This document shows positions 2,928 through 49,268 of a stretch of DNA of 64,000 nt, one piece after another. The notes beneath the pieces are model-generated. The model saw only the letters and a program-made list of their open reading frames with translations. It did not search any database and had not been told where the DNA came from. Numbering within the stretch: position 1 is the first letter of the stretch; each line of letters opens with the position of its first letter. The stretch is from Mustelus asterias. Lineage: Eukaryota. The stretch lies in contig NW_027590128.1 of the NCBI RefSeq assembly GCF_964213995.1, forward strand, positions 806,001-870,000, read 5' to 3'. The position numbers and the translations under genes were made by a program.

Positions 2928-3355
2928 CAGAGTCGCTGAGCAGAAACTGATAGCCAAGTTTCGCACACATGAGGACGGCCTCAACCGGGATCTTGGGTTC
3001 ATGTCAGACTATCTGTAACCCCCACGACTTGCCTGGGCTTGCAAAATCTCACAAATTGTCCTGTCTGGAGACAATACACATCTCTAACCTGTGCTTAACG
3101 CTCCCTCCACTCGCATTGTCTGTACCTTTAAGACTTGATTACCTGTAAAGACTCGCATTCCAATCATTATTCTGTAAATTGAGTTTGTGTCTTTTTATGC
3201 CCTGTTTGTAATCAGAACTCCCACTCACCTGACGAAGGGGCAGCGCTCCGAAAGCTAGTGGCGTTTGCTACCAAATAAACCTGTTCGACCTTAACCTGGT
3301 GTTGTGAGACTTCTTACTGTTTTTACACCAGTCCAACGCCAGTATCTCCACATCA
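2928..3355 (+). mobile_element. Penelope-like element 3' fragment with terminal repeat (pLTR)
   Basis: Encodes RVAEQKLIAKFRTHEDGLNRDLGFM, matching the C-terminus of ORF 37480-38463; followed by a terminal repeat like 38464-38801. Confidence 0.85.
3226..3260 (+). ncRNA. Minimal type I hammerhead ribozyme motif in PLE terminal repeat
   Basis: CAC-CTGACGA-A-GGGGC-AGC-GCTCC-GAAA-GCTA-GTG: stem I, CUGANGA core, stem II, GAAA, palindromic AGCT, UH site. Confidence 0.7.
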
Positions 3356-3414
3356 TGACATTTAAGGGGACAGTAAATTAATATAGGACAGATATAGGAC
3401 ACTGCGGGCGTGCG

Positions 3415-4835
3415 GTGGACTGAAAGGATTGAGTATGTGGACTTTAAGAAAGAGGTTGTGCTGGAATCTTTGAATGGCATCAAGATAGATAAGTCGCCGG
3501 GTCCGGATGGGATGTACCCCAGGTTACTGTGGGAGGCGAGCGAAGAGATTGCAGAGCCTCTGGCGATGATCTTTGCGTCGTCGATGGAGACGGGAGAGGT
3601 GCCGGAGGATTGGAGGATTGCGGATGTGGTTCCTATTTTCAAGAAGGGGAATAGGGATAGCCCAGGTAATTACCGACCGGTGAGTCTAACCTCAGTCGTT
3701 GGTAAACTGATGGAGAAGATCCTGAGGGACAGGATATATGAGCATTTAGAGAGGTTTAGTATGCTCAAGAATACTCAGCATGGCTTTGTCAAGGGCAGAT
3801 CATGCCTTACGAGCTGGTGGAGTTCTTCGAAAATGTGACTAAACACATTGACGAAGGGAAGGCGGTAGATGTGGTTTATATAGATATTAGCAAGGCGTTC
3901 GATAAGGTCCCCCATGCAAGGCTTCTAGAAAAGGTGAGAGGGCATGGGATCCAAGGGGCAGCTGCCCGGTGGATCCAGAAATTGCTTGCCCAAAGGAGGC
4001 AGAGAGTGGGTATAGATGGGTCTTTTTCTAAATGGAGGTCGGTCACCAGTGGTGTGCCCCAGGGATCTGTTCTGGGACCCTTGCTGTTTGTCGTTTTCAT
4101 AAATGACCTGGATGAGGAAGCGGAGGGATGGGTTGGTAAGTTTGCCGACAACACGAAGGTTGGTGGGGTTGTGGATAGTCTGGAGGGATGTCAGAAGTTA
4201 CAGAGGGACATAGATAGGATGCAAGACTGGGCGGACAAGTGGCAGATGGACTTCAACCCAGATAAATGCGTAGTGGTCCATTTTGGCAGGTCAAATGGGA
4301 TGCAGGAGTACAATATAAAGGGAAAGACTCTTAGTACTGTAGAGGATCAGAAGGACCTTGGGGTCCGGGTCCATGGGACTCTGAAAGCGGCCCCGCAGGT
4401 GGAGGAGGTAGTTAAGAAGGCGTATGGTGTGCTGGCCTTTATCAATCGAGGGATTGAGTTTAGGAGTCCGGGGATAATGCTGCAGCTATATTAGACCCTC
4501 GTCAGACCCCACATGGAGTACTATGCTCAGTTCTGGTCGCCTCACTATAGGATGGATGTGGAAAAGATTGAAAGGGTGCAGAGGAGATTTACAAGGATGT
4601 TGCCTGGATTGAGTGGCACGCCTTATGAGGATAGGCTGAGGGAGCTTGGTCTTTTCTCTTTGGAGAGACGAAGGATGAGAGGAGACCTATAGAGGTGTAT
4701 AAGATGTTGAGAGGCATAGATCGGGTGGACTCTCAGAGGCTTTTTCCCAGGGTGGAAATGTCTGCTACAAGAGGACACCAGTTTAGGGTGCTGGGGGGTA
4801 GGTACAGGGGAGATGTTAGGGGTAAGTGTTTGACA
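3415..4835 (+). mobile_element. CR1 LINE ORF2 (RT) fragment, frameshifted
   Basis: KSPGPDG, NYRPVSLTS, QHGF, DISKAFDKV, SGVPQGSVLGP, FADN across ORFs 3410-3838 and 3802-4494; stop at 4494. Confidence 0.92.
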
Positions 4836-5151
4836 CACTTCTGTTAAAATCCTGGTTGATTTGTACAAATAGAAAATCACTCTCTTTCTCTTCTTCTGCT
4901 TCCAATCCTCTCTCCCTCTTCTCCCCTCATAGAGGTCTTAATCTTGTGTAGGCTCAGATGGGGGTCAGCTTCCCTTCCCTGAAGGTTATTAATGAGCCAG
5001 TTGGGTTTTTAACAATCCAGCAGTTTCCATGCTCACTTTTTCCTTGTGCCAGCCCCAAAAATTGCCATATTTATTCAGCTCAATTTCACAACCTGCCTTT
5101 GTGTTTTGTGGATTCTCTCACTTTTTTTTCTGTTTTAAATTCACTTGACAG

Positions 5152-6180
5152 GGTCTTAGAAGGGGTGGTTTTGCAACAGGGAAACCGGAAACCAAACATC
5201 ATATCGGGATCTGACAAAGTTGCCCAAATTATTGGAACTGAATATCATCAAATTTTGAACATGGAAAGAAAAAAATCCCTGTTCATACTGGTGGGAAATC
5301 GTACATGTGTTCTGTGTGTGGACGAGGCTTCAGCCAATCTTCTGGCCTGTCGAGACACAAGCGTATTCACACTGGTGAGAAACTGTGGAAATGTGGGGAC
5401 TGTGAGGAGGCATTTGGTTACCCGTCTGAGCTGGAAACTCAGTGACGCATTCACCTGCTTTATATGTGGGAAGGGATTCACTCGGTCATCAAACTTGCTG
5501 ACGCACCAGCGAGTTCACACTGGAGAGAAGCTGTTCACCTGCTCCGTGTGTGATTCATCCAACTGGCTGAAACACCAGCGAGTTCATACTGGGGAGAGAC
5601 CATTCACCTGTTCTGAATGTGGGAGAGGATTCACCCATTTATCCACCTTGCTGAGACACCAGCGAGTTCACATTGACGAGAGACCTTATAAATACCCGGA
5701 ATGTGGGAAGTGCTATAAAGGTTCCTGGGAACTTACGTCCCCTCAAAGTGTTCACACTGAAGAGAGACTGTTCAGGTGCTCTCACTATGGGACTAGGTTC
5801 AGGCAATCATCTCAACTCACTGGACACCAGTGTATTGACACTGGGGAGAGGCCATTCACTTGCTCTGAGTGTGGGAAGGACTTTATGCAGTCATCCACCC
5901 ATCTGAGACATCAGCGGGTTCACACTAAAGACAGACTTTTCAAAGGTCCAGACTGTGGGAAGTGCTATAAAGGTTCTGAGGAACTGATGTCCCACCAACA
6001 TCTTCACAATGATGAGAGACCATTCAGGTGCTCTCACTGCGGGACTGGGTTCAGACAATCATCACCCCTCACTGTCCACCAGCGCACTCACATGGGGAGA
6101 AACCATTCACCTGCTCCAAGTGTGGGAAGGGATTCATTCAGAAATCTCACTTGCTGAAACACCAACGAGTTCACAAGTAA
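5152..6180 (+). pseudogene. Degenerate tandem C2H2 ZNF (ZNF-2)
   Basis: ORF 4958-6157 contains several fingers with lost Cys/His, internal deletions and a terminal frameshift; acceptor TTGACAG ends at 5151. Confidence 0.75.
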
Positions 6181-47649: not shown

Positions 47650-47923
47650 GATGTGGAGATGCTGGCGTTCGACTGGGGTAAACACAGTAAGAAGTCTCAC
47701 AACATCAAGTTAAAGTCCAACAGGTTTATTTAGTAGCAAACGCCACTTGCTTTCGGAGCGCTGCTCCTTCGTCAGGTGAATGGGAGATCTGATCACAAAA
47801 CAGGATTTTTTATGATCAGAACTCCCACTCACCTGACGAAGGAGCAGCGCTCCGAAAGCTAGTGGCGTTTGCTACCAAATAAGCCTGTTGGACTTTAACC
47901 TGGTGTTGTGAGACTTCTTACTG
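47650..47923. mobile_element. Fold-back PLE-derived mini-element with two opposed hammerhead motifs
   Basis: Arms 47683-47800 and 47808-47925 are near-perfect reverse complements; TSD TGTACTTACAC (47639-47649, 47924-47934); empty site at about 25544-25554. Confidence 0.88.
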
Positions 47924-48309
47924 TGTACTTACACCTCAGGCATTGTAGCAGTTCAGGAAGGCAGTGTTGGGGTTAACCATGTCTGAGGCAGCTACATACA
48001 GCCACATATTCTGTTATAATTGAAGGACAGCAGATTGAATGTGAGGCATTATGGGACTGGACTATCTTGACCACATTCCTGTGACTGCTCAGTTTCTGCA
48101 ATCACGGACCATTAAAGCTGCTTAGCAGGGCCCCAACAGAGGACCTGGTGAGAATATTTACTCAGAATGAGTTAGAATTAATCTTATTCCAGCACCGCTG
48201 GTGTTCAGCGGCTGAGATACCCGAATCTGTGAACAGGAGGTCTGGCCAATCAACAAACAGTGGTAGATAGTTGGTTAAGAAGTTAAAGATATTGGTCAAC
48301 ACCTCAGTA

Positions 48310-48878
48310 TGAAGATCAGAGGGTGGGCTCTCCCCAGCACATGTGCAGCTTCCCCTCTCCCCCGCACATGCGCAGTCCCGGGCCGGGGGGAGGGGGAGCT
48401 CACCGAGCGGCTTCTCGCTCTGTCCGGAGCCGTCAGCCGGTTGCCTGGAAACCTTGGCTCGATGTGGTGTAGGGGGAGGGGAACAATGGTGGGGGGCGGG
48501 TCTCCCGGGTCCGTGCCCCGAGCCTGCGATTGGAACCCGGAGACGTCACCGCGGAGCAGAGTGATTCCTATTGGCTGATTCAGGCAGGGCTCCATTGTGA
48601 CATCACAATGTGGAAGTTGACCAATGAGCTTCAGAGTGAAACTTCCTCCTCTGTACAACACCTGGGAGGAAATCAATGTTTCCCCCTTTCCATTTCTCTT
48701 CTCATTCTGGGGGAAATTGGGGACTTGCAGCAACTGAAGGGAAAGGAAGTGAATCCAGTCTGTATATTCCACACATTTCTACTCCAGTAATGTAGACATT
48801 TATCTGTCTGGCAGCCTGCATGGAAATTTTCAGCTCTCTGCATCCAGGGCAGAAGCAGTGAGCATGGATCTGTCAATC
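48310..48878 (+). promoter_or_regulatory. Orphan copy of the ZNF promoter/first-exon module (P6)
   Basis: Highly similar to 44980-45490; no ZNF exon follows. Confidence 0.7.
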
Positions 48879-49268
48879 ACACATGAGGACGGCCTCAACC
48901 GGGATCTTGAGTTCATGACACACTATCTGTAACCCCCACAACTTGCCTAGGCTTGCAAAATCTCACTAACTGTCCTGGCTGGAGACAATACACATCTCTT
49001 TAACCTGTGCTTAACCCTCTCTCCACTCACATTGTCTGTACCTTTAAGACTTGATTACCTGTAAAGACTCGCATTGCAACCATTATCTTGTAAATTGAGT
49101 TTGTGTCTTTATATGCCCTGTTTGTGAACAGAACTCCCACTCCCCTGATGAAGGGGCAGCGCTCCGAAAGCTAGTGGCTTATGCTAACAAATTAACCTGT
49201 TGGATTTTAACCTGGTGTTGTGAGATTATTTACTGTGCTTACCCCAGTCCAACGCCGGCATCTCCACA
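48878..49268 (+). mobile_element. PLE 3' fragment with pLTR and hammerhead motif (49142-49176)
   Basis: THEDGLNRD-coding end plus terminal repeat; CTGATGA-A-GGGGC-AGC-GCTCC-GAAA-GCTA. Confidence 0.85.

Follow-up and report, generated by a model that had tools for sequence, protein, structure and literature searches.

Seven short motifs in a 64,000-nucleotide stretch of Mustelus asterias DNA (contig NW_027590128.1, positions 806,001 to 870,000; hereafter the window, numbered from its first letter) are, judged from their sequence, minimal type I hammerheads that belong to the pLTR, the 3' repeat, of a Penelope-like element (PLE) of Neptune type. Hammerheads of this kind are already in print, those of fish Neptune PLEs among them (Cervera 2014), and the window adds one more family. 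We consider it highly probable that these minimal hammerheads (min-HHRs) arrived by five independent insertions into a C2H2 zinc-finger (ZNF) cluster and are now decaying, that the element's RNA is processed by pairs of motifs, and that the window copies are inert.

All seven motifs were found where the initial annotation had placed them:

h1, 3225..3261, plus strand: intact; UCAC/GUGG in stem I and a single G.U in stem II; CUA triplet, with cleavage predicted after position 3257
h2, 20584..20620, plus strand: broken; G at U16.1 and a stem II mismatch
h3, 34842..34878, minus strand: intact, in group 2; CCAU/AUGG in stem I; CUU triplet
h4, 38672..38708, plus strand: intact; sequence identical to h3
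h5, 47743..47779, minus strand: broken; A at U16.1
h6, 47829..47865, plus strand: intact; in read-through RNA it is predicted to be masked by a long hairpin formed with h5
h7, 49141..49177, plus strand: core intact; a C-U mismatch breaks stem I; folds into another structure

Their common form is CTGA[CT]GA-A-5-bp stem II (3-nt loop)-GAAA, and all occupy the same place within one repeat, of which sensitive self-BLAST of the window found no eighth copy. The annotation had read CTGANGA...GAAA-GCT-H in all seven, which stands for five; h2 reads GAAAGCG and h5 GAAAGCA, so that both U16.1 and the AGCU palindrome of stem III, likewise present in only five of the seven, are lost there. The full core CUGANGA ... 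GAAA ... UH is therefore confined to h1, h3, h4, h6, and h7, while the extra A after A9 and the G10.1-C11.1 closing pair occur in all seven. In the computed monomer fold, the A15.1-U16.1 pair has a probability of 0. The proposed identity, minimal type I hammerheads of a PLE whose stem III is a palindrome, is supported by repeat position, the link to an open reading frame (ORF), and the min-HHR features.

The pattern CTGANGAAN{4,20}GAAAGCT matched five times in the window, compared with a mean of 0.01 over 100 shuffles, and a full hammerhead descriptor matched four times (h2, h5, and h7 being broken), compared with none in every one of 200 shuffles. These tests overstate significance, since copies of one repeat are not independent, and an Rfam scan of the window returned no match at gathering score and no hammerhead among six matches at E<=10; both points would suit a chance hammerhead likeness inside a repeat. 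We nevertheless give that reading practically no credence, because the motifs sit in a PLE pLTR with all four extra features of Cervera 2014, and because a distant PLE (L001) has the same core with a changed yet paired stem I. L001 was the one related locus found in metagenome contigs; none was found in genome contigs, and the PLE protein had no match in viral contigs. At least 120 stretches of viral contigs carry the loose core pattern, and since none of those listed passes the descriptor or matches a PLE, they were dropped as chance matches rather than kept as relatives, which further argues against a chance origin of the window motifs. A search of the window for tRNA genes found none.

The seven motifs belong to five insertions, whose parts are as follows:

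Insertion 1, 2928..3357, plus strand: 5'-truncated PLE end with the last ~28 ORF codons, pLTR, and tail
Insertion 2, 20391..20675, plus strand: tailless pLTR fragment; in front of it stand 8 nt from the end of the tail, inverted
Insertion 3, left arm, 34790..34994, minus strand: tailless, inverted, 5'-truncated pLTR that adjoins the 12-bp duplication copy 34778-34789 on its inner side
Insertion 3, PLE ORF, N-terminal and RT part, 34995..36032, plus strand: 5'-truncated; DKG motif; weak RVT_1 match (E 0.015)
Nested LINE fragment, 36033..37314, minus strand: RVT_1 (E 6.9e-23); interrupts the PLE ORF
Insertion 3, rest of the PLE ORF, 37320..38463, plus strand: CX4CxxC linker; GIY-YIG (E 0.00035)
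Insertion 3, right end, 38464..38801, plus strand: pLTR with tail, then the second 12-bp duplication copy 38802-38813
Insertion 4, 47650..47923, no single strand: head-to-head inverted pLTR ends (h5 and h6)
Insertion 5, 48878..49268, plus strand: tailed, 5'-truncated PLE end that follows an orphan copy of a ZNF 5' region (48291-48879)

Three of the five insertions combine an inverted 5'-truncated pLTR, a tail at one end, and a short target duplication. Insertion 2 is flanked by a 14-bp duplication (20377-20390 and 20676-20689) that occurs once in an empty paralog at 52628-52641; the 12-bp sequence of insertion 3 occurs once (11 of 12 positions alike) in an empty-site homologue at about 34154-34166; and the 11-bp duplication of insertion 4 (47639-47649 and 47924-47934) occurs once (9 of 11 alike) in an empty paralog at ~25543-25554. 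The left arm of insertion 4 (minus strand, 47650-47804) carries the tail and the right arm (plus strand, about 47809-47923) does not. Insertions 1 and 5 are direct and tailed, and a target duplication was looked for at each and not found. All three inverted insertions thus have a tail at one end only, an arrangement that we do not present as new because it is described for inverted PLE insertions in PMC8557442 and PMC3846280; with empty-site paralogs for three insertions in one window, the inverted-arm, one-tail structure can be followed here at base resolution. No tandem array spans any motif in the window, and the motif pairs are inverted.

Accordingly, h3 and h4 mark opposite ends of a single 4-kb PLE comprising the RT part, the Cys linker, GIY-YIG, and the nested LINE. 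Their arms are identical at 202 of 205 positions, and the idea that they are separate copies was rejected because the 12-bp duplication is common to both and the ORF between them is collinear. The RT part and GIY-YIG form a single ORF across the nested LINE, with an in-frame stop just ahead of the IDD of the RT catalytic motif; its two Pfam matches (E 0.015 and 0.00035) fall below the curated cut-offs. The LINE, which we take to be CR1-like, has a short tandem-repeat 3' end and TTCAT on both sides. An RNA chimera of LINE and PLE inside insertion 3 was ruled out, because the PLE ORF resumes beyond the LINE. The CX4CxxC linker lies between RT and endonuclease, at residues ~221-229 of the predicted PLE protein P0001. 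The nearest Atlas clusters of the ORF are eukaryotic DUF8422 / RVT_1 (score 0.96), and PDB sequence searches with the protein found no solved relative. Motif h4 stands ~210 nt behind the stop of this RT/GIY-YIG ORF, and h1 and h7 lie behind the same ORF end. The linker motif, together with exclusion, points to a Neptune-type element: a CX2-5CxxC linker is a Neptune trait, common to Nematis as well (PMC8557442), and among sampled vertebrates PLEs have been reported only as Neptune and Poseidon.

The copies fall into two sequence groups, with 76-84% identity between them and 83-94% among the five group-1 copies (107 shared columns). The initial annotation had proposed two PLE subfamilies; the two groups are real, but the CCAT/ATGG group consists of the two arms of insertion 3, so that the second subfamily amounts to one event. 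Within the window, one stem I pair has altered on both sides (C-G to U-A) and another on one side only (U.G to C-G). The distant PLE L001 has independent stem I changes and supplies a second covarying pair, so that with group 2 and L001 included two of the four pairs have changed on both sides with pairing kept. In 500 shuffles, scores as high arose 4-6 times on four measures and 51 times on a fifth, for a set of seven distinct rows from three lineages in which, as the tool warns, relatedness alone can beat shuffles. Stem I covariation as originally claimed was therefore overstated, being carried by one insertion event and one window pair, to which L001 now adds. The AGC/TGT difference in stem II sits in the loop, as annotated, and is not compensatory; none of the five stem II pairs has changed on both sides. 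Disabling changes are present in three of the five group-1 copies, and group-1 differences affect 6 of 165 structural sites versus 19 of 310 flank sites (3.6% versus 6.1%; Fisher p 0.29), a low-power test whose trend is compatible with some constraint. L001 and the intact copies from either group retain every letter of the catalytic core, while the flanks diverge.

In computed folds, intact homodimers reached -17.9 to -19.7 kcal/mol as double hammerheads versus -21.8 to -23.6 kcal/mol as two monomers, so the active dimer is predicted to be the less stable state. It lies 4 kcal/mol higher than two monomers and 11 kcal/mol higher than the best dimer fold, in which stem II pairs with stem II and no active core forms. 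Mixed h1/h4 or h1/h6 dimers would keep 4/4 stem III pairs and 7-8/8 stem I pairs. Low dimer activity of min-HHRs has been reported for other PLEs (PMC4209133), cleavage being absent in monomers and in eight of nine Xenopus dimer elements. The hammerhead of an anole PLE cleaves with protein, and C3/G8 swaps rescue it, yet its mutants still insert in vitro and RNA-seq ends are absent at the site (PMC11167929), so that a role in processing is unproven.

We envisage that, in a tandem pLTR-ORF-pLTR transcript of the parent element, two motifs would swap strands; their AGCU palindromes would form a 4-bp stem III, and the CUGANGA/stem II/GAAA of one motif would cut the other after H17 (CUA or CUU). 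As the fold is too weak alone, the PLE protein would probably act as a chaperone, as in the anole PLE, and the cut would free the element's RNA from longer transcripts. None of the solitary or inverted copies in the window has a partner on its own strand within 9 kb, and all are most likely passengers without activity. The motif might alternatively be hammerhead-derived but used as a protein-binding or RNA-dimerization site rather than as a catalyst, which we think unlikely. The unimpaired insertion of the anole mutants and the lack of RNA ends would fit such a use, as would the other functions that Cervera 2014 leaves open (PMC4209133), the stem II-to-stem II pairing of the best computed dimer, and the AAGCUU palindrome of group 2 and L001, which might pair A14-U17 in competition with the active fold. 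Retention of the core letters despite flank divergence and the protein-aided, swap-rescued anole cleavage argue instead for the catalytic reading, and the two natural stem I variants offer ready constructs for testing Neptune hammerhead cleavage.

The initial annotation had further suggested that copies in ZNF introns or near promoters cleave host pre-mRNA, which the positions of the motifs do not bear out. A ZNF gene on the minus strand (18787-19787) has insertion 2 in antisense orientation within its predicted intron, where h2, the one clearly intronic antisense copy, is broken; the h3/h4 pair is intergenic; and h6, which pairs with the inverted h5, is located beyond two AATAAA signals. The only intact copy to run sense within a predicted ZNF intron is h1, which stands without a partner in its neighbourhood. 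Insertion 1 occupies the predicted first intron (2712-5152) of a ZNF gene with fingers at 5308-6112, a model drawn from paralogous splice signals only (predicted donor 2711, acceptor 5152). That h1 cuts this pre-mRNA in intron 1, with PLE RNA in trans or PLE protein, and so lowers or alters expression strikes us as very improbable. The motif is indeed intact and sense between donor and acceptor, ahead of an open ZNF frame; its mixed dimers keep stem III and most stem I pairs; and domesticated intronic canonical hammerheads are known in amniotes (PMC6155905). Contigs matching the pLTR are also very abundant in four runs, three of which may be RNA; this is not a measure of expression, and those three come from other organisms than the best pLTR-bearing runs. 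Against this, just one of the seven motifs is so placed, in 160- and 310-nt contexts the pairs of h1 in stems I and II reach probabilities of 0.00-0.03, the active dimer bears the energetic cost given above, published min-HHR monomers and eight of nine Xenopus dimers stay uncleaved, and the gene model is a prediction without RNA confirmation. None of the 15 splice joints listed (with 196 more; 4 of 22 runs on 1900-5540) spans h1, and none of the variant rows listed (with 416 more) covers the motif, which carries no weight either way. Equally long odds attach to h1 as a half ribozyme completed only with PLE RNA or protein, that is, a PLE-triggered switch on ZNF genes that may police repeats. 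Trans cleavage of unrelated RNA was rejected, as the window holds only three target-like nonamers outside PLE copies and binding would rest on 4+4 bp. Among the papers listed by literature searches, none deals with PLE min-HHRs that cleave the pre-mRNA of their host. If solitary intronic copies were completed in trans, PLE expression would become a genome-wide pre-mRNA cutter, and this would matter the more because such copies number thousands per genome in some vertebrates (PMC4209133).

We return to the reading of decaying Neptune-type min-HHRs and its published counterparts. Metazoan PLEs, among them Neptune, Poseidon, and Xena of fish, carry min-HHRs in their pLTRs, and the min-HHRs described in PMC4209133 share with the window motifs the type I form without loop 3, the palindromic 15.2-16.2, the extra base after A9, G10.1-C11.1, a 4-bp stem I (4-5 bp in the class), the pLTR position, mostly solitary truncated copies with several families per genome, and opposite-strand pairs ~100 bp apart. 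Stem II has 5 bp here versus 7-8 bp in Schistosoma (PMC4209133), and two supplementary files of that study hold no shark, Callorhinchus, or GAAAGCU entry that would represent this exact family. The Neptune clade (Craig et al. 2021, PMC8557442) shares the C-terminal GIY-YIG, CX2-5CxxC linker, DKG motif, 5' truncation, inverted 5' copy, and 30-40-bp tail at one end, whereas the window has no full-length or tandem copy and lacks a microsatellite target at the three duplication-bearing sites. Poseidon_Ac of the green anole (Frangieh et al. 2024, PMC11167929) likewise has a pLTR hammerhead and two 3' end classes ~25-35 nt apart (the tail), fitting two reverse-transcription starts; unlike the PLE of the window, Poseidon has no Cys linker, and the Poseidon_Ac ORF begins within stem II, where the window motifs have no ATG. 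Non-LTR retrozymes (PMC7229834; bioRxiv 10.64898/2026.07.22.740005) resemble the window motifs in their type I form, unstable stem III, and PLE pLTR kinship, but they are head-to-tail tandem repeats, which no window copy is. The domesticated intronic type I hammerheads of amniotes (RECK, CTCL; PMC6155905) are matched in placement by h1 only, and they are canonical, conserved, and single-locus, whereas h1 is of the minimal form and belongs to a recent copy of a repeat.

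Regular-expression scanning of both strands of the window returned 22 loose CTGAnGA...GAAA matches, seven of which have a common context. These seven correspond to the minimal hammerhead motifs (h1 to h7) of the initial annotation, whose positions were all recovered, and each lies at the same place in a single repeat, the pLTR of a Penelope-like element (PLE). Including both strands of stem I, the seven occupy the following positions:

3225-3261, plus strand: motif h1
20584-20620, plus strand: motif h2
34842-34878, minus strand: motif h3
38672-38708, plus strand: motif h4
47743-47779, minus strand: motif h5
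47829-47865, plus strand: motif h6
49141-49177, plus strand: motif h7

The pattern CTGANGAAN{4,20}GAAAGCT gave 5 matches (mean of 100 shuffles, 0.01), and a full descriptor (core, stem II, N-N'-U-H, and a 4-bp stem I) gave four, namely, h1, h3, h4, and h6, versus 0 in every one of 200 dinucleotide shuffles. Since the copies represent one repeat, these tests demonstrate a real family rather than seven independent events. Rfam returned no hammerhead, whether the cut-off was the gathering score or E<=10. Hammerhead numbering and the requirement for U16.1 are established; the GAAA-GCT-H string initially ascribed to all seven motifs holds for five, but h2 and h5 carry G and A, respectively, at U16.1. 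Motif h2 additionally has a stem II mismatch and stem I of h7 is broken by a C-U mismatch, such that three of the five group 1 copies (h1, h2, and h5 to h7) bear disabling changes. Structural positions differed at 6 of 165 sites versus 19 of 310 in the flanks (P = 0.29), a low-power comparison in which the difference in conservation is not significant.

The seven motifs are five insertions. More specifically, a single 12-bp duplication (34778-34789 and 38802-38813) encloses both h3 and h4, and its sequence is present once in a homologous repeat at ~34154-34166. Likewise, an 11-bp duplication encloses h5 and h6 (empty paralog at ~25543-25554), and a 14-bp duplication flanks the h2 insertion (exact empty paralog at 52628-52641), whose first 8 nt derive, inverted, from the end of the tail. 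We found no target duplication around the h1 and h7 insertions. The h3 and h4 arms are identical at 202 of 205 positions, so the proposed second subfamily is one event; two sequence groups do exist, with 76-84% identity between h3/h4 and the other five copies. In all three inverted insertions, a tail of ~25-35 nt occurs at one end and the other end stops short. Inverted insertions with a one-end tail have already been published (excerpts of PMC8557442 and PMC3846280), and this arrangement fits the two reverse-transcription start sites described for an anole element in the excerpted PMC11167929.

Two PLE frames lie between h3 and h4:

34995-36032: second PLE frame, with a DKG motif and RT motifs
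37384-38460: PLE frame of 359 codons upstream of h4, with IDD at its start, a CX4CxxC linker, and a GIY-YIG match

The RVT_1 match of the former is weak (E 0.015), its nearest Atlas clusters being eukaryotic DUF8422/RVT_1 (score 0.96), and the GIY-YIG match of the latter (E 0.00035) is below the Pfam cut-off. An antisense LINE fragment (RVT_1, E 6.9e-23) separates them, the PLE frame resuming on either side. A stop codon ahead of IDD indicates that this copy is dead. The Cys linker points to either Neptune or Nematis (PMC8557442, in part), and the vertebrates sampled in bioRxiv 10.64898/2026.07.22.740005 yielded no PLE clades other than Neptune and Poseidon; the carrier is thus assigned to Neptune by exclusion rather than by tree.

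Elsewhere in the window, 44734-44772 (minus strand) matches the first 39 nt of U2 snRNA (Rfam E 2.9e-05, short of the gathering score). A LINE 3' part comes next on the same strand, possibly making this a U2-LINE chimeric retrocopy produced via template switching. The stretch at 51418-51490 (minus strand) resembles a tRNA, with a weak match in Rfam (E 8.7) and none called by ARAGORN, and probably represents a tRNA-derived SINE head. An 87-bp tandem array (57750-58370; 7.2 copies, 98% matches) has several open frames.

Compensatory stem changes had been proposed. Within the window, UCAC/GUGG gives way to CCAU/AUGG in stem I, with one pair altered on both sides and another on one side only; none of the five stem II pairs changes on both sides, the AGC/TGT difference lying in the loop. 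A metagenome contig scan identified one locus with a common ORF end (tblastn E 3.5e-11), in which the motif core is as in the window and stem I reads UCUC/GAGA. With it included, two of four stem I pairs show two-sided changes and 96.8% of cells pair (slid controls, 30-57%); 4-6 of 500 shuffles reached the observed values on four measures, and 51 of 500 on a fifth. Stem I covariation from three lineages is supportive of a hammerhead, short of decisive. That marine metagenome locus (L001:520-980) comprises a related PLE ORF end and an intact minimal hammerhead (886-913) with AT-rich flanks.

Ten C2H2 zinc-finger arrays form a cluster in the window, distributed over 1-61100 in both orientations, with common promoter modules (some inverted between paralogs) and stops or frameshifts in several arrays; the DNA may resemble that of cartilaginous fishes. 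Two recent duplications (~95% identity) pair 6-1076 with 23484-24553 and 20676-21635 with 51661-52641. A 28-bp unit with TGACGTCA, a sequence taken to be CRE-like, is arrayed next to CpG-rich ZNF promoters (21518-21626, 3 copies; 51540-51790, 9 copies). Gene models were predicted from paralogous splice signals, CpG-rich promoters, and reading frames, not RNA. Against these models, the suggestion that the motifs cleave host pre-mRNA was not upheld. Motif h2 is broken and antisense within a predicted intron; h7 is broken and sits behind an orphan promoter copy; h3 and h4 are intergenic, 0.7 kb past a CpG-rich promoter; and h5 and h6 come after two AATAAA signals (47417 and 47513), where read-through RNA of either strand is computed to form a long hairpin (381 nt, ~-233 kcal/mol) with hammerhead stem probability 0. 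Only h1 combines an intact motif with sense orientation inside a predicted intron (2712-5152), which precedes an open frame, and the hammerhead stems of h1 have computed probabilities of 0.00-0.03 in 160-310 nt of context. In contig sets from four sequencing runs compared with 1900-5540, pLTR-like sequence was far commoner than the unique flanks in 4/4, which is not a copy number. A trans-cleavage role for h1 is considered highly improbable.

A CpG-rich promoter module oriented as a plus-strand ZNF 5' end (33601-34051) is 0.7 kb away from the near-complete PLE at 34790-38801, and this host promoter could transcribe the dead element; if the promoter near h3/h4 fires plus-strand too, the RNA would carry the h3 complement plus h4. 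The orphan ZNF promoter/5' region copy at 48291-48879, which matches 44942-45493 at 82% and lacks an adjoining zinc-finger exon, is bounded by the h5/h6 and h7 insertions.

Fold computation gave a stem III pair probability of 0, the monomer being unable to form this stem. In a strand-swapped dimer, AGCU would form a 4-bp stem III between two motifs, and each would cut its partner after H17. Computed without tertiary terms, the active fold of intact homodimers (-17.9 to -19.7 kcal/mol) is less stable than two monomers (-21.8 to -23.6 kcal/mol), and an inactive dimer joined via stem II reaches -28.7 to -30.9 kcal/mol. This weak dimer fold agrees with excerpted reports that a Schistosoma motif does not cleave as a monomer and cleaves little as a dimer (PMC4209133), that the anole motif cleaves only with the element's protein, its mutants still inserting (PMC11167929), and that 1/9 Xenopus dimer elements is active (bioRxiv 10.64898/2026.07.22.740005). 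We infer that the hammerhead most likely serves, with help from protein, to trim tandem RNA of the parent element.

Searches of papers and of supplementary files on PLE hammerheads gave no match to this particular family; figures and other supplements may list it. Minimal hammerheads were described in fish Neptune, Poseidon, and Xena PLEs by Cervera and De la Pena (2014, PMC4209133, in part). Most of those copies were solitary, others formed pairs on opposite strands at distances of 100-700 bp, and a genome carried several families; the palindrome and compensatory changes were also noted. The motifs here share the core, stem, palindrome, and pLTR sequence features of that class, with two-sided changes in two of four stem I pairs and in none of five stem II pairs, and on this basis are one further family of a class published in 2014.
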